Shown here: piece by piece, positions 775-13,219 of the stretch
Layout of the letters: each line of letters begins with the position of its first letter
How positions within the stretch are numbered: position 1 is the stretch's first letter
Origin: an uncultured Ignavibacteriaceae bacterium
GTDB lineage: Bacteria; Bacteroidota; Ignavibacteria; Ignavibacteriales; Ignavibacteriaceae
Assembly: GCA_963714415.1 (NCBI GenBank)
Contig: CAVQOL010000014.1
Span: 10,223 to 74,222 of the forward strand
Reading direction: 5' to 3'
DNA length: 64,000 nt
The notes under the pieces: model-generated
Databases searched by the model: none
Told to the model about the DNA's origin: nothing
What the model saw: the letters and a program-made list of their open reading frames with translations, nothing else
Made by a program: the position numbers and the translations under genes

Positions 775-1595
775 TTAGAACGGATTAACAAAACTATAAA
801 CAATATCAGCATATTTCTTAGTTTCTTCGAGGTGAACATTATGCCCGGAATTTTGAATAATTGAGAGTTTTGAGACGGGTATCAATCTTTTCATGTGGGA
901 ATTTATATCAACAAATTTTTTATCTAACTCACCGCAGATAAGCTGAACAGGCATTCGGATTTCGGAAAGTCTAGCAAATAAAGGTTCCATAACTCCTGTT
1001 CCAAATCCAAGTAAAGAATTCGCCAAACCAGTTCTATTACTTTGTAATTTTCGATTTCTTATTTCTTCTAAAACTTTTTCGGAAAGATTTCTTTGAGTTT
1101 GAAATATTTCTTTGTTCATCCAATCATCCACAAAACTTTCTATCGGATTTGATAAAATATATTCTGCCAGGTTTTTATCAGTTCTTTCCCTTTCAAACTT
1201 AAGGGAAGAATTATTTATTCCCGCTGAAGCACTTTCAAGAATTAATCCTTCCAGATCATATGGTAAACTTAATGAGTAGTTTAAGGCGGCTCTTCCTCCC
1301 ATCGAATAACCAAGCAGGAAAATTTTTTTGCCTGTTACATGCTCTTTAACTTTTTTTATTTGACGGACAATTGATTCGATTGTATAGTAATTCAGATTTG
1401 ATGGTGAATCACTTTTGCCGTGTCCGATTAAATCAATTCCAACAAGATTAAAATTTACCGGAAAATATTTTTCAAATGTAAGCCAATCTTCGAGCGAACC
1501 GGTAAATCCGTGAAGAAGAAACAGGTAAAATTATTTTTTATTTCAGGACGCAAAAATTCATAATTTATTCTTATCGACTCAAATTCAATAAACAT
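775..1595 (-). pseudogene. menH: SHCHC synthase (alpha/beta hydrolase MenH), one apparent frameshift near the N-terminus
   Basis: ORF 775..1302 extends upstream in frame through the nucleophile elbow FLLGYSMGGRAA and LFLLHGFTGS. A TAA then blocks the frame. In another frame MFIEFESIRINYEFLRPEIKNNF starts at an ATG overlapping the menD stop. The shift lies in the A/T run at ~1525-1540. Confidence 0.8.
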
Positions 1596-3369
1596 TTTCA
1601 GAACCTTTTAACCATTCATCGACTTCTTCAACCAGATTATGCCAAAAATCTCTTCTTTTCTTAAGTGATTCCCGGGCATTTGTTTTAACTTCAATTACTA
1701 AAGGAATATCTGAGCGTCTATTAAGGGCAAGATTCAACTGAGTCGAAGTTTTAACAATTTTGTAATCAATATTCATCGCATTAATAATATTTTCAAAATT
1801 CATTTTAGTGGATGCAAGAAAATATTTTTTCAATTCATCTTTCTGGTCTGCAATAGGAAGGGAGTTAAATAATCCGCCGCCATCGTTATTGATTAAGATA
1901 ATAGTAAGATTAATATTTTTCGCTTTAGCAATATGTAAAGCTGTTAAGTCATAGTAAAAAGCCAGATCACCGGTTAACAGAAAGGTGCGTTCTTTTGTCG
2001 CTTCAGCAATGCCTAAAGCTGTTGAAATAATTCCGTCGATACCACTTGCACCACGATTTTGATGAACAGTGAAATTCTTATTTGTCTTTTGTAAAAAGAA
2101 ATCCAGATCACGTATCGGTGTGCTGTTTGAAACAAATAAGACTGATTTATCAGGAATGTTTCTTGAAATATGAGAGATGATGTTAGGCTCATCAATCAAA
2201 TGGGAATTGTTAATGTATTCAACTTTAAGCCATTCACACAGATCATCAAGCTTGAGCAAAAATTTTATCCAGTTAGAAATATTCTTTTTCCTTGAAGTTC
2301 CAATATTTTTTATCAGTTTATCAGTAAATGTGTAAACATCTGCTTTAATTAATTTAGTTGCATTACGCGAAGGATCATAACAATCACCGAATTCATTAAT
2401 TATAAATCTCGAAGTTTTGATTTTTGAAAGATAATTTTCCAATGATGCAGAAGTTGGAGTTCTTCCAAATTGCAGGATCAAATCCGGTTGAACTTTTTTT
2501 ACAAATTCATTCGACCGCAAAAATGCATCATAGTTTGTAATGATTAAATCATTTTCTTTAACTCCGGTTCGGAAATTTGAAGCACCATCGGCAAGAATTG
2601 GAAATCCAGTTAAGCCGGATAATAATTTAATTTTATTTTTTAGCAGCTTATTAAAATTTGTCGGACCAACTATAATTAAACCGTTAGAAGACAGTCTGAT
2701 TGCATCATAAACTTCGTTTAACTCTTTTTCCTTAAATAAAATTTTAGAGCAATGAAACAATTGAGCAGCAGAGATCTCATCAATCTCACTCAGCTTTGAT
2801 TCAGTTAGTTCGTCCGTATGTAAATGAGGTTCAAGCGGTTTTTCAAAAGGAAAATTGATATGAACCGGACCGCGATCGGTAATCAAAGCAATCCGGAATG
2901 CTTCATTTGTTTTCTTTAAAAATTTCTCAATTGATTTTTTACTTAGATTGGGTAATCCTGCATCGTAAAAAAATCTTATATGATTTTTATATAGATTATC
3001 CTGATTTATAGTCTGATTTGCCCCAGTATTTCTTAAATCTTCAGGGCGATCAGCAGTACAGACAATCATTGGCACACGATTTTGATAAGCTTCTGTGATA
3101 GCCGGATAAAGTTCAACTGCCGCTGTTCCCGATGTTGTTACTACTGCCACTGGAAGACAGGTTTGTTTTGCTAAACCTAAAGCAAAGAAACCGGATTGTC
3201 TTTCATCAACAAATACATGCTTTCTTATTTGTTTATTGTTTGCAAATGCTGAAGTAAGCGGCGTGCTTCTTGAACCGGGAGAAATACAAACATGCTTAAG
3301 TCCTGATTCAGCAAGCTGATTAACGAACTTTTCAGCCCAGATAAAATTTTTGTTAACTTTTATTTTCAT
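1585..3369 (-). CDS. menD: SEPHCHC synthase (thiamine-diphosphate enzyme)
   Basis: 594-aa intact ORF. ThDP-binding motif GDLAFYYDL...NNDGGGLF. Sits between menF and menH. Confidence 0.92.
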   Translation of the reverse strand: MKIKVNKNFIWAEKFVNQLAESGLKHVCISPGSRSTPLTSAFANNKQIRKHVFVDERQSGFFALGLAKQTCLPVAVVTTSGTAAVELYPAITEAYQNRVPMIVCTADRPEDLRNTGANQTINQDNLYKNHIRFFYDAGLPNLSKKSIEKFLKKTNEAFRIALITDRGPVHINFPFEKPLEPHLHTDELTESKLSEIDEISAAQLFHCSKILFKEKELNEVYDAIRLSSNGLIIVGPTNFNKLLKNKIKLLSGLTGFPILADGASNFRTGVKENDLIITNYDAFLRSNEFVKKVQPDLILQFGRTPTSASLENYLSKIKTSRFIINEFGDCYDPSRNATKLIKADVYTFTDKLIKNIGTSRKKNISNWIKFLLKLDDLCEWLKVEYINNSHLIDEPNIISHISRNIPDKSVLFVSNSTPIRDLDFFLQKTNKNFTVHQNRGASGIDGIISTALGIAEATKERTFLLTGDLAFYYDLTALHIAKAKNINLTIILINNDGGGLFNSLPIADQKDELKKYFLASTKMNFENIINAMNIDYKIVKTSTQLNLALNRRSDIPLVIEVKTNARESLKKRRDFWHNLVEEVDEWLKGSENVY

Positions 3370-4761
3370 TGTTGAATAAAGAAATAATTGCTTCAGCTTT
3401 TAATTGTGTCTCTTTAAATTCTTTTTCAGGATCAGAACCGGAAACTATGCCACATCCTGCATACACATATAATTTATTTTGATTTATTAAAGCGGATCTT
3501 ATAGATACTATTAACTCAGAATCCTCTTTAAGATTCATCCATCCTAAAAAACCTGAAAACATACCTCTGTCAAAATCTTCAACTTCATCAATAACATTGA
3601 TTGTCTGTTTTGTAGGATAACCACCGACTGCAGGAGTTGGAAAAATATCATCTAATATTGAAAAGATTTTTGAGCCGCTTTTTATGTTTCCTTTAAGTCC
3701 AGTATATAAATGTTGAATATTTGATAATTTTTTTAATGAAGGTGATGTGTCAATCTTAACATTACTGCAATATTTATTAAGAATATATTTAAGATGATCT
3801 ATAACAAAAACATGTTCATCTATATCCTTAGAACTCTCAACAAGAATTGATTCAAAGTGCTTGTCCTCTTTATCACTATTTCCTCTTTCTATAGAACCGG
3901 CAAGTGCTTCAGTATGAAGTTCACTATTTTTTATCACAAGTAATTTTTCCGGCGATGCACCAAAGAATATGGATTTTTTTACTTTATAAATGAAATTATA
4001 ACATTCAGGATACTTTTTATCCAATTTAAAAGCTAAATCTGCCATACTCAAAATTATCAATAAGATTAAATTCAGTTTTCCTGGATAATACGACTTTAGC
4101 AAATTCTTTATCATCTATTTTTTTAAGTACCTTATTAACTTTATTCTGCCAATCAGAAAACACTTCACTCTTTGAAGATTTTATATATGTTTTTATTGAT
4201 TTACTTTGAAATGAGAGACTTATTTCTTTTTATTCGTTCATTTATCGAATTAAACTTTTTTATTAAAGAAATTTTATCATTAACTGAATTGGAATTGATA
4301 TTAATTACAGAATAAGCTTGTTCTCCATATTTAATAAGGATCAACTCCGGAATAAAAAGTTTTACTGGTTCAAAATCCTTCCATTCCTCTGATGTTTTAT
4401 CTGAGGGAAACTTTGCGGCAAAGAAAAATATAGGAGGATAATAACCTGTTGTTTCAAAATTGTGGTGTAGATTATTTTTTATGAGGGAAAAATTATTATA
4501 GAATTGTTTCAGTTCATTAGTGTTTTTAAAAGAATGACTAAATGACTCGCCGGAAGTGAGAATATAGAAATTCTGTTCGGGAATAGAATAGTAAAATAGG
4601 TTATCCTGATTTTTCTCAAATAATTTTATTGCAGAATAAAGATTTATTTCATCTTCTTTGGATACATAACTAATAATTGAAGGTTCACTAGATTGATTAT
4701 AGTCTAATGAATCAACAAACTTCATTAAAATTTTCATTATCAATATTAATTTTATCGGCAA
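3353..4761 (-). pseudogene. menF: Isochorismate synthase, split over three frames
   Basis: C-terminal chorismate-binding part (FFGASPEKLL, TEALAGS, PTPAVGGYP, FDRGMFSGFLGW, AGCGIVSGSDPEKEFKETQLKAE) is in ORF 3353..4114. The N-terminal part is in ORF 4201..4761. A third frame between them reads SEVFSDWQNKVNKVLKKIDDKEFAKVVLSRKTEFNL. Shifts lie near 4200-4235 and 4028-4060. Confidence 0.85.
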
Positions 4762-4770
4762 TAATCATAT

Positions 4771-5735
4771 CTAAAAATTCAAATCTTCTTCTATTGAATC
4801 CAATATCCTTAAATAACTGTCATATCTTTCCATCGTAATTTTTCCTTTCTTCAACGGCTTTTATCACTGCACACTCAGGTTCATGGTGATGTGTGCAAGT
4901 ATTAAACCTGCATTCATTTATGATATTTATTGAACTCTTTAAAGTAATAAGAAAGATTTTCTTTCCTTATACCATAAGGATCAATTTCCCTTACACCGGG
5001 AGTATCGATGATGTAAGTATCGTTACCAACATAAAACATAGGGCTTGTAACAGTGGTATGGATTCCCTTTTGAGAGTATGTACTAATTTCGCCTACCTTT
5101 AATTTCAATTCAGGAAAAAGTTTATTTAGTATAGAAGATTTTCCCACGCCTGAATGTCCCCAAAATAAATTTTTCTTTCCTTTGATAAGTTCATCAATCG
5201 CATTAATTCCTTCACCAGTAATAACACTTGAAAGAATTACATCATATCCAATAGACGTGTAAAGCTCTTTCCAGAAAGTGTAATTATCGTCTTCAATCAA
5301 ATCTGCCTTATTGATTACAATGTGTGTGTTGAGATGAGAACTTTCGCAAGCAACAAGAAAGCGGTCAACAGATTTATAATTAAATTCCGGTTCCTTAATA
5401 CTTGCAATAACAAAAACATTATCAATATTCGCCGCAATAACCTGTTCAAGTCTTTCACCGCGATAACTTGATCCACGGATCTTAGGAGCTTTACGTGAAA
5501 GATAATTTTTACGCTTCAATATTTTTTTTATAACACCGCTTCCGTCTTTATTCAGATCATATTCAACAAAATCACCCACAACTGCTACGTCTGTCGCATA
5601 TAATTTATCTTTCTTAAGATTAAAATCCTTTTTGAATTTTCCCTTAAGTGAACATCTTATAGTTGAATGATCTTCAGGCGAAAATACGTAATAATCCTTG
5701 CTTTCAGTTCTGTTAACTAAGCCTTGAATGATAAA
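4771..5735 (-). pseudogene. rsgA: Ribosome small-subunit-dependent GTPase A, C-terminal zinc-finger region frameshifted twice; start uncertain
   Basis: ORF 4914..5579 has NKADL, GHSGVGKSSILNKL and DTPGVREI. Downstream in other frames: [23 protein letters not shown], then [24 protein letters not shown]. The N-terminus extends in frame (IIQGLVNRTESKDYYVFSPEDHSTIRCSLKG) with no ATG. Confidence 0.85.
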
Positions 5736-5740
5736 CTCCG

Positions 5741-5782
5741 GTATAAAAATAAAAAAGCGTCATAACGAAAATATGACGCTTT
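5741..5782 (-). terminator. Rho-independent terminator after the OMP gene 5811..7229
   Basis: Perfect 10-bp stem AAAGCGTCAT / ATGACGCTTT (5754-5763 / 5773-5782) with a 9-nt loop. On the minus strand it is followed by TTTTTTATTTTTAT. Confidence 0.8.
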
Positions 5783-5810
5783 GATTGCTTAATCAAATTG
5801 AGTGAGATGA

Positions 5811-7229
5811 TTAAAATCGATATGTAGTGGTAAGCATAAAATTATTAACTTTTATATCCTGGGAAGTCCGGGATAAATTCGATCCGTAATTATCTCCAAA
5901 GTCTTTCCACCAGCCATAAGCATAGCCTAAATCAATACCAATAGTTCCGTCAATAATGTAACCAATACCAGCAGTGAGATATTTTCTATCATAATCGGAA
6001 GGATCACCATCAAAAGCAGATGGCTGAGTAAAATATCCGCCTCTTAAACGCAAACTTGTCTGTGGTACGTTGTATTCCAGACCTAAGTTGTAATTGAATA
6101 CTGTAGCAAGTAAATCTTTAATATCTTTGTTCATAACAGAAATGTCTTCAGGAGATATTCCTTCAGCATTATCAAATTCCATTTGAGAATAATCAATCAT
6201 AGTTGCTTCTGCACTAAAAATCAAACCGCGAAAGTTAAATGAAAAGCCTGCACCAATTTCAAATGGGGTTATAATATCGTATTGAACTTTATCACTATAA
6301 TCTTCTGAATTGAGATCGACTATCCAATTTGCAAACTCGCTGCTTCCGCTAACATTAAAATCTTCTTTGATTGTATAATATTTTGGAAATTGAATTGTTG
6401 CCCCAATGCGAGCAATATTTTCAACCTGATACAAAAATCCAATTTTTGCATTCCAACCGGATAAATCCCAATCAATTAATTGATTGAGATAAAAAGTTCT
6501 GAAATCAGTAGTAAATGATTCTCCAGTAACAGTTTCTCCCTGGTAAATATTTCTTGTATCATCTTCATAATAATCATAATCGGATTTGAATCCGCCGGAA
6601 ACAATATTAAGGTTAGCTCCGACAAATAAGTTTTTATGAACTTCAATTGCTCCTGAGAGAGTCCAGTTGTTGATTGAACCGCTATTAAGAATGTTTCCAC
6701 TTTGATTTAGCAAACCGTTAATTGGGGTGTTAAATTCCTCATCAGTCAGATAGAGATCATAAGGAATATATGTTCTATCATTTAGGAATTGAATTCTTGA
6801 ATGATCTTCTGAATTGAAACCGTCAAATTTTACAGTGCTGTTAAAGTCTTTGGTTTTGTGATATGATAATCCAAAGACTAAACTTCCTCTTATTGTCGGG
6901 AAAGGGAAAGCAAAACTTATCCTGTCCAAATTTGTGCTGTTTGAATTATCATCAATAGTATTGTTAAATAAAGTAACATCGTTATTGAATGATGAAAATC
7001 CAAGACCACCGGAGAATTCCATTTTTTTCATCAAACCAAATCCGGCAGGATTAAAAAAAGCCGCCGATGCATCATCGCTTATCGCAATAAAACTATTACC
7101 CATTCCTAAGGCACGTGCATTTGAACCTAAGCCTGGAAGACCTAATCGTAATGCATCATTATAATTTTGAGCGAATGATGATGTAATAGATAGTAAAATA
7201 ATTACTAAAGAAAATTTTATAGCTTTCAT
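5811..7229 (-). CDS. Outer-membrane beta-barrel protein, FadL / PorV-PorQ-like
   Basis: Signal peptide MKAIKFSLVIILLSITSSFAQ. N-terminal motif NARALGMGNSFIAISDDASAAFFNPAG. Alternating beta-strand pattern with C-terminal ...TTTYRF. The start overlaps the upstream stop (TAATG). Confidence 0.65.
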   Translation of the reverse strand: MKAIKFSLVIILLSITSSFAQNYNDALRLGLPGLGSNARALGMGNSFIAISDDASAAFFNPAGFGLMKKMEFSGGLGFSSFNNDVTLFNNTIDDNSNSTNLDRISFAFPFPTIRGSLVFGLSYHKTKDFNSTVKFDGFNSEDHSRIQFLNDRTYIPYDLYLTDEEFNTPINGLLNQSGNILNSGSINNWTLSGAIEVHKNLFVGANLNIVSGGFKSDYDYYEDDTRNIYQGETVTGESFTTDFRTFYLNQLIDWDLSGWNAKIGFLYQVENIARIGATIQFPKYYTIKEDFNVSGSSEFANWIVDLNSEDYSDKVQYDIITPFEIGAGFSFNFRGLIFSAEATMIDYSQMEFDNAEGISPEDISVMNKDIKDLLATVFNYNLGLEYNVPQTSLRLRGGYFTQPSAFDGDPSDYDRKYLTAGIGYIIDGTIGIDLGYAYGWWKDFGDNYGSNLSRTSQDIKVNNFMLTTTYRF

Positions 7230-7742
7230 TATTTTCTCTCATTTCCTGAATTTCTACTTCCTGAATCGTTCCTGGTATCCGAACTTCTGGTATTACTTGA
7301 ACCAGATGAACTGCTGCTTGATGATTCCGTTCTGGATACACTTCCGGAGCTTCCGGTATTACTGTTAGAACTTGTAGATGTATTATTAGAATCACCGGTA
7401 CTTATTGTAGGCGGTGGTGTATTTAAGATTTCGGGGATTCTTCCGCCTGTATTTCTTCCACCGTCATTATTTCTAATATCTTTTGTATCACCGTCTCTTG
7501 AATTATCTCTATCCTTTGTTATAGAAACATTACCTGAAGTTGGATTATATGGATAGTCAACAATTATAGGAACAGTAATACCACCAGGGGATATCATAAA
7601 AATCAGTTTCGTAACCGTAATAATGAGATATCGAAATGTAATCTTCAGTTATTTTTTTATCTGGTGTCCAGAGTATTGTATAACAACCTTCTAAACCAAA
7701 AAGAACAAAAGTAATCACCAATATTTTTAATAATGTTTTCAT
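7229..7742 (-). pseudogene. Tyr-rich / Ser-Asn-Arg low-complexity lipoprotein (short paralogue of 7750..8925), one apparent frameshift
   Basis: Lipobox LFGLEGC followed by YT, as in the neighbour. HYYGYETDFYDIPWWYYCSYN sits in one frame and VDYPYNPTSGNVSITKDRDNSRDGD...SSSSSSGSSNTRSS in the other. The shift is at ~7555-7570. Confidence 0.6.
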
Positions 7743-7749
7743 TATTTAC

Positions 7750-8925
7750 CTACCTTGTCCTGGAGTCTCTGTCACGAGATCCACTGCTGCCACTTCCACC
7801 ACTATTTCTTGATGGCGGGGGAGAAGAGCGTGGCGGACTGCTTGGTCTATTGCTGCTTGGAGGGCTTACAGTTCTGTTAGGTTGATTATTTCCTCGAGGT
7901 GGAGTATTAACATTTGGTTTTCGATTAGAATCCGTATTTGGTCTTCTTTCAATTCTCGGTGGATTATTATTCTCTTTCCTAGTATTTACATCACTGTTTC
8001 TCTTAGTATTTTCATTTCTTCTAATTACAGGATTTTTATTTTCTTTGCTTTCCCTTCGTCCTTTAACATTTTCTTCACGCTGTTGATCTCTGGGATCTTT
8101 TCTAACTTTTCGATCTGTAGTAACTCTTTTTTGTTTGTCTCTATCAGTCTGAACATTTTTCCTTCCCTGATCTTTTCTGCTATCGAGAGTTTTGGTTCTC
8201 TCACTAGTTCTTGTGCTTGTTCTGGTATCGAGTATATTTCTATCTCGTAAAACATCTGTTCTTTTTTCGGTTACATTACGATCAATATTTGCTAAAGAAG
8301 TTCTTTCTCTTTGTTTAAGCTCACTGCGTAAAAGATCGGATGCGGATCGGTCTCTGGTAACCAGAGGATCTCTATCTCTAAGACCACTATTTCTTAAACC
8401 CGAATTATTTCTGACAGCGTAAATATCATTAGTTCTGTATTTATAAGTGGTATAATTCCAGGAACCATAGTACGGATAATACCAACCGGAATAATAAACC
8501 GGATAGTAATAAACAGGGTAAAAAAGAATAGGTCTGTAATACCAGACAGGGTAGTAGCAGTAATAATCCCAATAGAAAGGATCATAATAATACCAACTGT
8601 ATCCGTAGTTCAATCCTATTGTAACAGAAGGATAATAGTTCCAGTAATATTTGCGGTACGTTGGATAATCGTAATTATAATTGTCATTGTTATATTCATA
8701 TTCATCATTTTCAGTGTACGATTCAGTATCTTCATAATCGTCGTAATACTCACTGCTTTCTTCGTAATATTCTGAAGTATCATTTTCTACATAATCTTCA
8801 TAATATGGTTCATCGCTATAGCCGCTCCATTCATTAGTAACGACTTTTGTATAGCATCCTGTTAAAAGAAACAAAGCAGGAAAAATTATCATCGAGAGGG
8901 TTAATATTTTTTTCATCTCATCCAT
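7750..8925 (-). CDS. Lipoprotein with acidic/Tyr, aromatic, basic and Ser-Pro-Arg low-complexity blocks
   Basis: Lipobox LFLLTGC. No recognisable enzymatic motif. The extreme composition is described in the findings. Confidence 0.6.
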   Translation of the reverse strand: MDEMKKILTLSMIIFPALFLLTGCYTKVVTNEWSGYSDEPYYEDYVENDTSEYYEESSEYYDDYEDTESYTENDEYEYNNDNYNYDYPTYRKYYWNYYPSVTIGLNYGYSWYYYDPFYWDYYCYYPVWYYRPILFYPVYYYPVYYSGWYYPYYGSWNYTTYKYRTNDIYAVRNNSGLRNSGLRDRDPLVTRDRSASDLLRSELKQRERTSLANIDRNVTEKRTDVLRDRNILDTRTSTRTSERTKTLDSRKDQGRKNVQTDRDKQKRVTTDRKVRKDPRDQQREENVKGRRESKENKNPVIRRNENTKRNSDVNTRKENNNPPRIERRPNTDSNRKPNVNTPPRGNNQPNRTVSPPSSNRPSSPPRSSPPPSRNSGGSGSSGSRDRDSRTR

Positions 8926-9074
8926 CCTTTTTTTAACTGCTTAAAAATGGTCAAAAATCAAGCCTAATTAAAGTCGGAAAAACATATCAGAAAGTGGAAG
9001 AATAGAGATAAAAACCCTTTTTTTTGTATAATAATTTAAACTTTAGTGTCTATTCAAATGTACACAAAGAAAAA

Positions 9075-9848
9075 TTAAAATATACTTTGAATGAACTCCA
9101 TTGTTAATCCTCTATCAGCAGCAGATGGATTCCATTGTTTATTCGTTAAAATATCTCTTAATTCCAATCCAATGGTAAACCCATTTCCCACACCCCATTT
9201 TACAGCAACATTTAAATAACCTGTTCCTTTACCAAAAAGATCGGATGAATTATCGTTAAACCCAAGGTCATATTCTCCAAGAACGGAAAAATTTGGACCT
9301 AATGTTTTTTCAACACCAACAATAAGATTTATAAAACCATCACCATCTTTGTTTTCAATAGAATAATTAATTACTCCATGAAAACTTAAGTAACCCAGCA
9401 ACTCAAAATTCTTGCTTGATGCGGCAAAAAATCCGGGTGACTTAATCGCATATCTTCCAAACTCATCGAAGTATTCACCTTTACCTTGTGAATCAAATCC
9501 AAGAGCAATTGCAGGAATTAAAGTTGTTTCATTAATTAACCTTACCCGAAAGTTGACACCTGGCCACTTATACCATTCAGGAGATCCAATTCCAATAATA
9601 TTTGTTCCACCATAAGAAATTCCAAAACTTACATTATCGAACACGCCGACTTCTATTTTTGCCACTAATACTCCTAAAGGCAGAATATCTGTCGTTATGC
9701 CTACATTTCCTTTGTCAAGAATTCCTGCAGTTGGCATATCAATTAAATATCTGTATTCATATTTTGCAGATGTACCAGCAGACCCTTGAGCAAAAATTGG
9801 GCTGACCTGTAATATGAAAGCTGCGGTAATTATTAATAAAGTTCGCAT
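9075..9848 (-). CDS. Small outer-membrane beta-barrel protein, unknown function
   Basis: Signal peptide MRTLLIITAAFILQVSPIFAQ. Alternating hydrophobic strands. C-terminal ...EFIQSIF. Confidence 0.55.
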   Translation of the reverse strand: MRTLLIITAAFILQVSPIFAQGSAGTSAKYEYRYLIDMPTAGILDKGNVGITTDILPLGVLVAKIEVGVFDNVSFGISYGGTNIIGIGSPEWYKWPGVNFRVRLINETTLIPAIALGFDSQGKGEYFDEFGRYAIKSPGFFAASSKNFELLGYLSFHGVINYSIENKDGDGFINLIVGVEKTLGPNFSVLGEYDLGFNDNSSDLFGKGTGYLNVAVKWGVGNGFTIGLELRDILTNKQWNPSAADRGLTMEFIQSIF

Positions 9849-9922
9849 AATTCCTCGGAGTTTTATTTTTTCATATTCAAAATAAAAAATATTTTAATTT
9901 ATTGCACTATAATAATTTAGCC

Positions 9923-10309
9923 TTATCCAGTTAAAGCTAAGATTTCAAACCTTATCAGGTTAGGGAATAGTGAGAATTGAGATTTAATAGAAATTTCTAC
10001 CTTGCCAGAAGTGCCTTTAGAACGAAGAATGATAAATCCATTTTTTTGATCTAGTTCAACTATTTCAATTAAACTTTCGCCTTCCAAAAAAATAAATTCT
10101 GCAGTTGAATATCTGAAAGGAATTTTCCATCCAAAAGCGTTAACCGGAATAACTTCAATTTTTATTGTTGAAGAGTGATCGGCAAATAAATTCTCAGGAT
10201 GTTTTTTAATGACGTCTCCATAAACATTAAAAACATACATCGAAAAGAAGATCAGAATAAATATTGAAACTGAAATCAGAATAATTAAAATATTTTTTCT
10301 CCTATTCAT
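9923..10309 (-). CDS. Membrane-anchored hypothetical protein
   Basis: 128 aa with an N-terminal TM helix (ILIILISVSIFILIFFSMYVF). Overlaps the upstream ATP-grasp gene by 8 nt. Confidence 0.4.
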   Translation of the reverse strand: MNRRKNILIILISVSIFILIFFSMYVFNVYGDVIKKHPENLFADHSSTIKIEVIPVNAFGWKIPFRYSTAEFIFLEGESLIEIVELDQKNGFIILRSKGTSGKVEISIKSQFSLFPNLIRFEILALTG

Positions 10310-11238
10310 AAGATAAATGATTTATTTTCTGTTTTTTAAGTTTCTGTACATCAAGTCTTAAAAGATGGATTATCTGATTAACAATTTGGTCAGGAACACC
10401 ATCCTTATGAACAGATTTTAATCTCATATCGCATTGATCATTAACATAATCAATCACTACAAATTTTTTCTCCGGTGTTAAAACAATTTCGGTAGAAAAA
10501 AAATCTAAGTGAGTAAGTTGTACAATTGTTTTTGTAATTTGATTCAGTTTTCTTAATCCGAATTTTTTAATTTGTTCAGCGGTAAGAATTTCATAAATAT
10601 GAGTCTGATCATCCCACCACACACAAATTGGCTTGCCGAAAGCCCAAAAGCTACGGAACCAGGCACGTTTACCTTCAAGATCGCCTGGAATTATTTTTTG
10701 TTGTATAAGATATTTATCCGATTTATTAGTTCGTCTTTCCAAAAGAACTTCTTTTAGTGTTTCAGCGCCGGTAACAACACCTATTCCGCCGCCCGTTGTG
10801 ATGCATGGTTTAATAATAAATGGTCTTCCTAATATTGCAAGATCATCAACAGATATGATTAATTCCTCCTTTTCTTTAAGCGGAGGAATTATTATTGAGT
10901 AAGGAACATTTATTCCTGCAGATATAAATTCAAGGTGCATTGTTGCTTTATCGATAGCATGTTCAACATTTTTGTAAGGATTAAATATTCTGCAATTTCT
11001 TCGAGTTAATATTTTTGCAAGTTCGGTGAAATCATCATCAACATCGGATGCTCTGTCAAGATAAGATCTAAACCAAAGTCTTTTACGTTTTACCAGATCT
11101 GTTATTTCGAAGAATATTATTTTCTGTAATTACAAAGGTTGAAAGTCCGTAAGATTGAAGTGTTTTTTCAATGAGATCAACAAAATCTTTATCGAATTCC
11201 CAAACAAATGATATGGCTAAATCAAATGTGTTAATCAT
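10302..11238 (-). pseudogene. ATP-grasp family protein (RimK/glutathione-synthetase-like), one apparent frameshift
   Basis: ORF 10302..10940 has FIIKPCITTGGGIGVV and a C-terminal ATP-grasp-like layout. Upstream, MINTFDLAISFVWEFDKDFVDLIEKTLQSYGLSTFVITENN is in one frame. FFEITDLVKRKRLWFRSYLDRASDVDDDF...KATMHLEF is in the ORF frame. The shift is at ~11101-11125. Confidence 0.6.
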
Positions 11239-11392
11239 GTAAAATTTTAACTTTTATTATAAAACTTTATAATTCCTTTATCTTTGTAAGTAAAGGCTGT
11301 TAATCAATACCGTAAATATAAAGAAAGAAACCGGCTCCTATAATTTATAAAATACCTTGTTATTCCTCAGCGCTAATAATATATTTTCTTTA

Positions 11393-13219
11393 ATGAAAAG
11401 ACTAATTATTACAAACCTGTTAATGGTATCTGTTCTGCTTCCAATAATTATAGCTTGCGGCGGAAGTGATACGGTTATCCAACCAAAAAATACATCTGTT
11501 GCTTTATCAATCTCTGAAAATCAAAGAAAGAAAAAAGCTTTAGACCATTTTGTAAACGGAACAGTTCTCGAAGCTCAAAACAACTATAATGCTGCTGTAA
11601 GCGAATTTGAGAAAGCCTTGCAATATGATACGACTGCAGGAATTTACTATTCACTTTCAAAAAATTACTTCTTAACAAACAAACTTATTCAATCGCTGAA
11701 TAGTATTAAGAAGGCAGTTGAACTTGATTCAACCAAAATTGAATATTATGATTTAATGGTTGATGTATATTCTGCGGCAAGAAATACATGACTCTGCTCT
11801 TACTGTACTTGAAAAAGCTATGGTTCTTGAACCGAATAATGTAAACCTGTATTACAAACTCGCCAGATTGTATGAAATATCAAAACCATTGGAAGCGATT
11901 TCTGTTTATGAAAAATTAATTGAGTTAGTTGGTCCTGATTGGAACTTGCTTGTTCGCATAGCTGAGTTATATGAAAAAACAGGAGATACAGATCTTGCCT
12001 TGGATGCAATAAAGCGTTTACTTGAAATTGATCCTTCGAATAACCAAATAAAAATTTTGTTGATTGACTTAAATCAACGAGCCGGTAAATATGATGAAGC
12101 AATTCAAATTACAAATGATCTCCTGGAAATAACTCCTAACGATATTTTAGTAAGAGAAAAGAAGGCTCTTGCTCTTATTGCAAAAGAAGATTGGGAAGCA
12201 GCTTCAAAAGAATTTAACTTTATAATTGAAAATGATAGTGTTAATCTTGACGCCAAAATAAATATAGCGGCATCTTATTACGAGAAATCGATGTCCGATT
12301 CGTCACTTCTCCCAATCGCAAAAAATCTTTTTGAAAGAATTGATAAAGACACACTTAACTGGCAGGTGAAAATGTATCTTGGTGCAATTGCATTTAGTGA
12401 AGGTAAGGATTCTTTAGCTATAGAAAATTTTAAATTCGTTACGGAAAATGCTAACTGGAATGTTCAAGCGTGGATAAGACTTGGCGGACTTTTATACGAT
12501 AACAGGAAATATGATGAAGCATCAAAAATAATGTATGAAGCTGTGGAATCTTTTCCTCAGGATTTTGCAGTGAACTTTATACTTGGACTTTCTTTAACAC
12601 AGCTAAATAGTCAGGAACAAGGAGAGGTTTATCTTAAAAAAGCCGTTGATCTTAATCCTTCTGATTTAAATGCACTGTCTGCTTATAGTTATACACTCAG
12701 CCAGTTAAAGAAAAATGAAGAAGCAATTACTTATTTATCAAACGAGCATTACAAATAGATCCGAATGATGTAAATCTTATCGGGACACTTGGACTTATTT
12801 ATAATTCAATTCAAATGTATGCTGAGAGTGATAGTACATATGAAAGAGGATTGGAACTTGATCCACAAAATGCATTAATAAATAATAATTACTCTTATGC
12901 TCTTGCTGTAAGAGGTGAACAGCTTGAGCGGGCATTAGAGATGGTTAAGATTTCAATAGCTGCAGATTCATTAAATTCATCGTACCTCGATACTATCGGC
13001 TGGGTTTATTTTAAGCTTGAAGAATACGGTCTTGCAAAAATATATCTTGAAAAAGCAATTGAAGTCGGAGGTGAAAGTGTTGTTATGTTAGACCATCTTG
13101 GTGATATAGAGTATAAATTAGGTAATATTGTACGGGCAAAAGAACTGTGGAAAAAAGCAGTCGAACTTGAGCCATCGAGAACAGAAATTCAGATAAAAAT
13201 AGAAAAGGGAGAACTTTGA
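11393..13219 (+). pseudogene. TPR-repeat lipoprotein, two apparent frameshifts
   Basis: Lipobox LLPIIIACGG. TPR-like repeats run through three ORF-track pieces (11357..11791, 11760..12758, 12815..13219). These rejoin at ~11783 (AARNT*/HDSALTVLEKA) and ~12748 (YLSNEHYK*/ALQIDPNDVNLIGTLG). Confidence 0.75.

Follow-up and report, generated by a model that had tools for sequence, protein, structure and literature searches.

We analysed a stretch of 64,000 nucleotides (nt) from an uncultured Ignavibacteriaceae bacterium (contig CAVQOL010000014.1), referred to here as the window and used for all coordinates, which carries on its minus strand the genes for two predicted lipoproteins, A and B, and for an outer-membrane beta-barrel of the FadL superfamily. 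These three genes are a translationally coupled, co-inherited unit: B starts at 7742, 7 nt after the stop of A, and the stop codon TAA of B shares one base with the ATG of the barrel gene in the sequence TAATG at 7229. An earlier sequence-only reading of this DNA had described the open reading frame (ORF) of A, both junctions, a barrel of 472 amino acids (aa) followed by a terminator, and the residues G-C-Y-T in both lipoproteins, and all of these are present. The operon has the following features.

7750-8925, minus strand: lipoprotein A, a 391-aa ORF in the ORF list; according to orthologue alignments the real start is probably the ATG at 8916 (MKKIL...), matching relatives
7229-7742, minus strand: lipoprotein B, found as two ORFs in different frames, the frame being broken by a 1-nt insertion
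7581-7742, minus strand: N-terminal part of B, with signal peptide, G-C-Y-T-I-L-W-T-P, acidic/Tyr block and D-I-P-W-W
7580, minus strand: extra T compared with orthologues, the source of the frameshift in B, located by DNA alignment with the related loci L003 and L002
7229-7579, minus strand, next frame: C-terminal part of B, with S/T/N/G-rich tail, IRNNDGGRN, TPPP and C-terminal RNSGNERK
5811-7229, minus strand: FadL-superfamily outer-membrane barrel, 472 aa, with a signal peptide to A20
5744-5782, minus strand: intrinsic-terminator-like hairpin 28 nt past the barrel stop, with an 11-bp stem (5782-5754), a 7-nt loop and then a T-run

The unit is conserved well beyond the window. In a scan of one genome per GTDB species, 430 genomes were found to encode a relative of the barrel, and we examined the best 80 of these 430 loci, all of which come from Ignavibacteriota or from unclassified 'Bacteroidetes' metagenome-assembled genomes (MAGs). 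In about 70 of the 80, the barrel gene is directly preceded by genes of the A type (300-420 aa) and of the B type (150-200 aa), each with G-C-Y-T; the loci without them mostly have too little upstream sequence, and 71 intact B orthologues of 150-200 aa were recovered. A and B mostly stand 3-12 nt apart or overlap by 4 nt, and the spacing of B and barrel ranges from -4 to +5 nt. Distant matches to the B family show the same gene order. Furthermore, barrels of 30-40% identity, from MAGs labelled 'Bacteroidota bacterium' or 'Ignavibacteriae', retain an A-like lipoprotein upstream, which reads GCYTQ(V/F)GS and continues with an acidic block, an aromatic core of Y/W/P/G, then TRxFGSTR, a tail of Ser/Gly/Arg and GGxR at the C-terminus. 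The A-like protein is the only lipoprotein in loci L086-L089, where it is preceded by a barrel of 255-260 aa, and both A-like and B-like genes are present in L090; the module is also retained where the flanking genes change (L085, L090). A lack of conservation in relatives would have counted against the sequence-only reading, but the gene arrangement is kept both in distant lineages and in about 70 loci at the species level. We define the core unit as the barrel plus A, with B present or absent and a small barrel usually upstream. Literature searches turned up no mention of the Ignavibacterium album locus tags and no reports on tyrosine-rich disordered lipoproteins; this conserved outer-membrane module is so far undescribed.

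The sequence-only reading had also taken 7229-7742 to be one intact gene. Its start and its stop junction hold, but a single open frame does not, the 514 nt not being divisible by 3: the first frame ends at 7557, leaving a 61-aa ORF, and the remainder is a 122-aa ORF (7229-7597) in another frame. In the DNA alignment with two relatives, one of which (L003) is a locus with a barrel protein 95% identical to that of the window, a single surplus T stands at 7580, immediately after CCCTGGTGG, and tblastn places the frame change at 7581/7588. Without the extra T, B becomes a protein of 170 aa that can be aligned over its full length with intact orthologues of 154-171 aa. Five more frameshifts relative to orthologous proteins were observed in the same ~8 kb (one in the ATP-grasp gene, two in rsgA and two in menF), bringing the region 3356-11238 of the window, B included, to at least six frame changes within ~8 kb. 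Because of these five further frameshifts in neighbouring genes we read the break in B as a probable assembly error: the extra T at 7580 most likely arose in sequencing or assembly, and the clustering of the frame changes points to an error-prone (long-read) assembly and not to decay of the genes. A pseudogene or a programmed frameshift was rejected in view of the 71 intact orthologues, one of them from the locus with the 95%-identical barrel, together with the other frameshifts nearby. The gene of a TPR lipoprotein at 11357-12758 also seems split into overlapping ORFs.

Both lipoproteins are predicted as such from their sequence, a signal peptide being followed by a lipobox (LLTG-C for A, GL(E/Q/T)G-C for B). 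Among 75 A and 72 B sequences the lipobox cysteine never varies, nor does the whole of Cys-Tyr-Thr at +1 to +3, and CYT is followed by uncharged, mostly hydrophobic residues (QVAT in A, (V/I)(I/V/L)W(T/D/S)P in B). Over 41-75 orthologues, the mature part of A runs from C-Y-T through an acidic, Tyr-rich block of ~64 aa (net charge -14), a Y/W/P core of ~84 aa (YPxYRKYYW...YYDP..WD..C; 44% Y/W/F, 11% Pro) and the motif IRNxSGLRN into an Arg-rich basic tail of ~215 aa (net +28), which has hardly any aromatics and ends in ...SRDRDSRTR. B has a 41-aa acidic/aromatic head and then a ~108-aa tail of which 59% is S/T/N/G. An AlphaFold2 model of B, built for a 95%-identical orthologue with 102 homologues, gave a predicted local distance difference test score (pLDDT) of 54.8, a predicted template-modelling (TM) score of 0.15 and no secondary structure past the signal peptide, i.e. 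B has no predicted fold and is predicted to be disordered. Of the earlier description as low-complexity disordered lipoproteins, the low complexity is borne out for both, and the disorder for B, the one modelled. Neither A nor B matches a Pfam or NCBIfam family or shows a catalytic signature, and searches of the same two collections agree with the sequence-only reading that no catalytic motif is recognisable in any of the three proteins. Amyloid-type imperfect repeats are absent from A and B, the sole repeats being a 15-nt unit present 2.2 times and a 9-nt unit present 2.1 times. A and B are two protein families so far unannotated, with an unusual design of acidic-Tyr, aromatic and Arg-rich blocks.

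In a profile-profile comparison of A and B only the signal peptide and GCYT align (34 columns, probability 98%), and by eye the alignments of both families show IRNxxGxRN, a C-terminal RNSGxxR and a similar layout. The WxYYC block that had been offered as evidence of paralogy has to be given up, since 'WWYYC' in B is out-of-frame sequence, caused by the extra T at 7580, and the in-frame motif of B is D-I-P-W-W-I-T-V-P.

At least one additional cysteine occurs in 71 of 72 mature A sequences, exactly one in 42, by eye mostly within D-P-W-(W/Y)-C of the core; in the window this region of A lies at 8480-8620 on the minus strand, and B, the FadL-type barrel and the small 257-aa barrel of the window have no such cysteine. 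Left unpaired, it might form A-A disulfides.

By Pfam assignment, hatch motif and fold match, the barrel belongs to the FadL/OmpP1/TodX superfamily. It passes the threshold of Pfam PF03349 Toluene_X (50.3 bits against a cut-off of 29.7, E 1.7e-13) and fails every related NCBIfam cut-off, scoring 60.7 against 250 for BamG (NF053685), 57.4 against 90 for PorV_fam, 30.5 against 250 for PorV and 20.7 against 220 for PorQ (the PorV/PorQ models being NF033709, NF033710 and NF033711). An AlphaFold2 model of the barrel (pLDDT 79.4) was compared with the PDB by Foldseek, and BtBamG came first (E 5e-17, TM 0.69), then FadL (TM 0.66), PgBamG (TM 0.70), FjBamG, TodX and TbuX, with BtBamG, FadL and PgBamG about on a par; the best 27 PDB matches are all of the FadL family (BamG, FadL, TodX, TbuX, CymD), with target TM values of ~0.56-0.70. 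A diverse sequence profile searched against the PDB yielded TbuX at 3e-11, BtBamG at 8e-10, PorV at 3e-7 and FadL at 1e-6, and because these E-values are comparable the clade appears roughly equidistant from the known FadL branches.

Two parts of the barrel are under strong constraint. The hatch motif N60-P61-A62 (NPA) is invariant in 40 orthologues, and in 50 diverse relatives N60 and P61 do not vary and A62 hardly does. High conservation also marks the mature N-terminus, QNYNDALR, which exceeds that of E. coli FadL by 7 residues (QNYNDAL); Q21, D25 and R28 are invariant, and distant relatives have Q-x-x-(E/N)-D-A-L-R. Counted in alignments, 39 residues separate the mature N-terminus from NPA, compared with 32 in FadL, ~32 in TbuX, 43 in BtBamG and ~40 in PorV, the last count presuming a signal peptide of ~20 residues. 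The barrel is 63% identical to I. album IALB_2070; its close relatives number in the hundreds, and all of them bear the label Ignavibacteria. Liu et al. list IALB_1455 as the BamG and IALB_1454 as the BamH of I. album (PMC12611786); since the I. album BamG is thus not IALB_2070, the barrel is a paralogue and not BamG itself. An identity as BamG, PorV or PorQ was rejected on the cut-offs of the hidden Markov models (HMMs) and these published assignments. Slam or type XI secretion, which would have a DUF560 barrel with an N-terminal TPR, was also rejected, as there is no DUF560 match and the barrel is a Toluene_X protein. What the sequence-only reading had called a FadL/PorV-like barrel dedicated to its lipoproteins has proved sound in both respects, the fold being that of FadL and the linked lipoproteins being kept; instead of falling among ordinary unlinked FadL transporters, the barrel belongs to a clade that keeps its linked lipoproteins.

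Upstream of A, the minus strand continues with three further genes.

9075-9848, minus strand: small outer-membrane beta-barrel of 257 aa, separated from A by a 149-nt gap, with weak likeness to the YjbH/GfcD N-terminal barrel
9923-10309, minus strand: 128-aa protein, a frequent upstream neighbour
~10302-11238, minus strand: ATP-grasp-like protein, a frequent upstream neighbour, frameshifted near 11112

In 67 loci the small barrel stands before A, the median gap being 166 nt, and it also adjoins the A-like gene in the distant loci L086-L089. The Bacteroidetes-type promoter motif TAnnTTTG is not enriched in the gaps upstream of A (6 of 67, against ~13 expected from shuffles), and no known RNA was found in the region. 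The window protein matches Pfam PF06082 YjbH weakly and below threshold (21.5 bits against 24), and 24 of 25 small-barrel orthologues match it weakly as well, with a best E of 1.2e-6 and only profile positions 10-107 of 658 covered; a search of the small-barrel profile against the PDB returned only a weak OmpA-barrel match. NCBI names I. album IALB_2067 a 'YjbH domain-containing protein', and the I. album orthologues of the other genes are named 'hypothetical' (B and the 128-aa protein) and 'ATP-grasp domain-containing'; the A sequence did not turn up among these names. At the sequence level, the likeness of the upstream barrel to the N-terminal barrel of YjbH/GfcD is suggestive.

We place the 128-aa and ATP-grasp genes outside the core because they are absent beside the module in several loci: both are missing there in L036, L050, L053 and L086-L090, and the ATP-grasp gene also in L085. 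Most Ignavibacteria loci have the two genes upstream of the small barrel; the distant lineages do not. The ATP-grasp-like protein has ~304 aa and no signal peptide, and in I. album its gene overlaps the 128-aa gene by 4 nt (L001 2190-3481). Divergent from the cluster in relatives runs a trio of genes for a TPR lipoprotein, a DUF4292 protein and an M23 peptidase (L083 1-3719, L084 1-3453, L001 1-2132), which places the module in an envelope-biogenesis neighbourhood; the divergent TPR lipoprotein is a common neighbour, not a universal one, and one TPR protein of the relatives has a faint TPR_Slam match. Near the I. album locus (L001 9455-13419) lies the gene of a ~1900-aa C25-peptidase protein with a Por_Secre_tail of the type IX secretion system (T9SS), suggesting that the lineage carries type IX secretion cargo. 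On the other side of the module, the barrel of close relatives is followed by co-oriented genes, namely rsgA and, for menaquinone, menF, menD, menH and menB (window 1588-5579, minus strand; L002 7676-13344). In the distant locus L086 a VitK2_biosynth gene was seen ~4 kb upstream of the module, a synteny that may be coincidental, and in L086-L089 the barrel consistently has a co-oriented gene of the penicillin-amidase family (~805 aa) downstream. No further CYT-lipoprotein or FadL-like barrel was found in the rest of the 64-kb window.

The interpretation we favour, although we hold it only tentatively, is that in Ignavibacteria and related deep lineages of the Bacteroidota and of the Fibrobacterota-Chlorobiota-Bacteroidota (FCB) group the FadL-family barrel may be the physical partner of one or two disordered lipoproteins, which it would anchor or place. 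The barrel would be made in fixed proportion with its intrinsically disordered lipoproteins, and the lipidated CYT N-terminus of these would dock at or near the lateral opening of the barrel, beside the barrel's own conserved N-terminus, mirroring the N-terminus of BamH wedged into BamG. The barrel would thereby anchor A and B and possibly deliver them into the outer leaflet, while the disordered parts of A and B would act as a cohesive envelope layer or tether and not as enzymes; the small YjbH-like barrel would probably be a further subunit. We favour a complex of barrel and lipoprotein because the module has the same ingredients as BamG-BamH, namely a FadL-type barrel with a conserved N-terminal extension, an invariant lipoprotein N-terminus and translational coupling. 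We also count in its favour the retention of the module across loci and lineages, BtBamG as the first Foldseek match, the distance from the mature N-terminus to NPA, and the absence of catalytic or family signatures from A and B together with the predicted disorder of B.

Several observations weigh against this interpretation. The N-terminal extension of the barrel (7 residues) is shorter than that of BamG (~11), the retained hatch and NPA motif are compatible with a transport function, and the contact between barrel and lipoproteins is one that we infer. A linkage of FadL with an enzymatic lipoprotein is also known, in the case of VolA (PMC3656444). Furthermore, A and B fail the test for the Bacteroidota export signal, which calls for at least 2 acidic residues within about six residues after the lipidated cysteine: between +2 and +7 there are none in 73 of 75 A sequences and 0-1 in all 72 B sequences. 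If the rule holds in Ignavibacteria, the missing signal would argue against surface exposure; the window has few other lipoproteins and no SusD by which the rule could be gauged.

The features that a transporter would share lead to the alternative that the barrel takes up hydrophobic or aromatic compounds as an ordinary channel of the FadL type, with A and B as accessory lipoproteins that capture substrate close to it via their sticky aromatic segments, as in the pairing of VolA and FadL in Vibrio cholerae. We consider this rather unlikely, even though it can draw on the Toluene_X score above cut-off, the invariant NPA hatch motif, TbuX as the best PDB match at the profile level, strong Foldseek matches to FadL and TodX, and the precedent of VolA, a lipoprotein co-expressed with a FadL homologue (PMC3656444). 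However, A and B have no enzyme or binding fold, the conserved N-terminal extension is missing from transporters of known structure, and the module resembles a core syntenic envelope locus beside housekeeping genes and not a catabolic island.

The missing export signal would be readily accommodated if A and B faced the periplasm, where their basic or polar disordered tails could tether or space the outer membrane with respect to the peptidoglycan in an Lpp-like manner, with the barrel co-regulated but not a docking partner. The tail of A, with its length and strong positive charge, would suit the binding of anionic envelope polymers, and the TPR lipoprotein, DUF4292 and M23 peptidase genes of relatives put envelope functions nearby. 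Such a role is unlikely in our judgement, as without a specific partner it is difficult to account for the extreme conservation of C-Y-T and the coupling to the barrel within a few bases across distant lineages, and no peptidoglycan-binding domain was found among the Pfam and NCBIfam matches of A and B.

The partner interpretation also has a bolder form, which we regard as distinctly improbable: the FadL-type barrel, perhaps with the small YjbH-like barrel, would be a lateral-gate device that takes the CYT lipid anchor to the outer leaflet, whereupon the Tyr- and Arg-rich blocks would form a condensate-like surface coat. If true, the module would be a minimal, self-contained model for the movement of FCB lipoproteins to the surface and the first lipid-anchored 'sticker' polymer layer in bacteria.

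That BamG is the best NCBIfam match and BtBamG the top Foldseek match also brings to mind an alternative or accessory sub-complex of BAM, the machinery for beta-barrel assembly, i.e. a BamG2/BamH2-like pair attached to BamA, and BamG paralogues with an adjacent lipoprotein do exist (PMC12578637). We give this little credence, given that the score of 60.7 is far under the BamG cut-off of 250, that BamG and BamH of I. album are IALB_1455 and IALB_1454 and not IALB_2070, and that A and B (of which B was modelled) are disordered, unlike the folded BamH, which resembles a carbohydrate-binding module (CBM). The logic of curli or Fap export favoured by the sequence-only reading, in which the barrel would secrete A and B as matrix or amyloid subunits, accounts for low-complexity, aromatic-rich proteins tightly linked to a barrel, but is rejected and retains hardly any plausibility, the barrel having a FadL fold with a hatch and not a CsgG or FapF channel, A and B being lipid-anchored and free of amyloid-type repeats, and no Csg or Fap family or accessory gene being matched by Pfam, NCBIfam or the neighbourhood.

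Returning to the barrel as a partner of its lipoproteins, we know of no established route by which lipoproteins reach the surface in Bacteroidota/FCB bacteria. The locus, found across the Ignavibacteriota loci examined, is a compact system for asking what a FadL-type barrel does with a lipoprotein, as such a barrel is firmly tied here to one or two lipoproteins that have the invariant lipidated N-terminus and no other folding part. That FadL-family barrels can be platforms for surface lipoproteins in Bacteroidota/FCB was shown only in 2025, for BamG-BamH. There, the FadL homologue BamG binds the surface lipoprotein BamH by the latter's lipidated and conserved N-terminus, next to its own N-terminus, which is extended and likewise conserved (PMC12611786, PMC12578637); in several FCB phyla bamG and bamH carry neighbouring locus tags (PMC12578637, PMC12611786), and BamG2-BamH2 is a putative operon (PMC12578637). 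The module likewise pairs a lipoprotein with a FadL-family barrel, presumably 14-stranded, that has a conserved N-terminus extended by 7 residues, the genes again being neighbours, and BtBamG is the top structural match of the barrel. In contrast, the barrel falls under the BamG HMM cut-off and I. album has a separate BamG/BamH pair; BamH is folded and CBM-like, whereas B has no predicted fold; BamH-K carry the Bacteroidota lipoprotein export signal (PMC12578637); and BamG is part of the BAM complex, whereas a link of the module to BamA would be hypothetical.

Other members of the barrel superfamily share less with the module. PorV and PorQ of type IX secretion, from the same superphylum, also belong to the FadL family and serve to bind proteins, not to transport lipids; the hatch region gives the best direct sequence match in the PDB, and the N-terminal length before NPA is similar. 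The barrel, however, is under the PorV_fam, PorV and PorQ cut-offs, A and B have no T9SS C-terminal domain, and its partners would be lipoproteins of the same operon. With FadL, TodX and TbuX the barrel has Pfam family, fold and NPA hatch motif in common, but it differs from these, and the module from VolA, in the conserved 7-residue N-terminal extension, in lipoproteins that have no enzymatic or folded domain, and in the lack of linked catabolic genes.

Outside the superfamily, GfcD/YjbH of the group 4 capsule operons is a two-barrel protein, with one canonical and one laterally open barrel, that has been proposed and modelled to release lipid-anchored cargo into the outer membrane (PMC11494523, PMC8592465). 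In the module, a 257-aa barrel with a weak match to the N-terminal YjbH barrel is encoded upstream, beside a laterally gated FadL-type barrel and lipid-anchored proteins, whereas the match is under Pfam's threshold, the two barrels are made as separate polypeptides, the second one is FadL-type and not GfcD-C-type, and there are no capsule genes. The block design of A and B recalls loop EL3 of Bacteroidota BamA, which is tyrosine-rich and disordered (PMC12578637), so that such sequences do occur at FCB outer membranes, which we take as a lead only. The curli (CsgA/CsgG) and Fap (FapC/FapF) systems also encode low-complexity proteins beside an outer-membrane protein, but with another channel fold, and the lipid anchors of A and B, their lack of amyloid repeats and the lack of accessory genes set the module further apart. 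Overall, the module looks more like the barrel-plus-lipoprotein pairs of Bacteroidota than like an amyloid export system, and represents a new variant of the theme that joins a FadL barrel to a lipoprotein.

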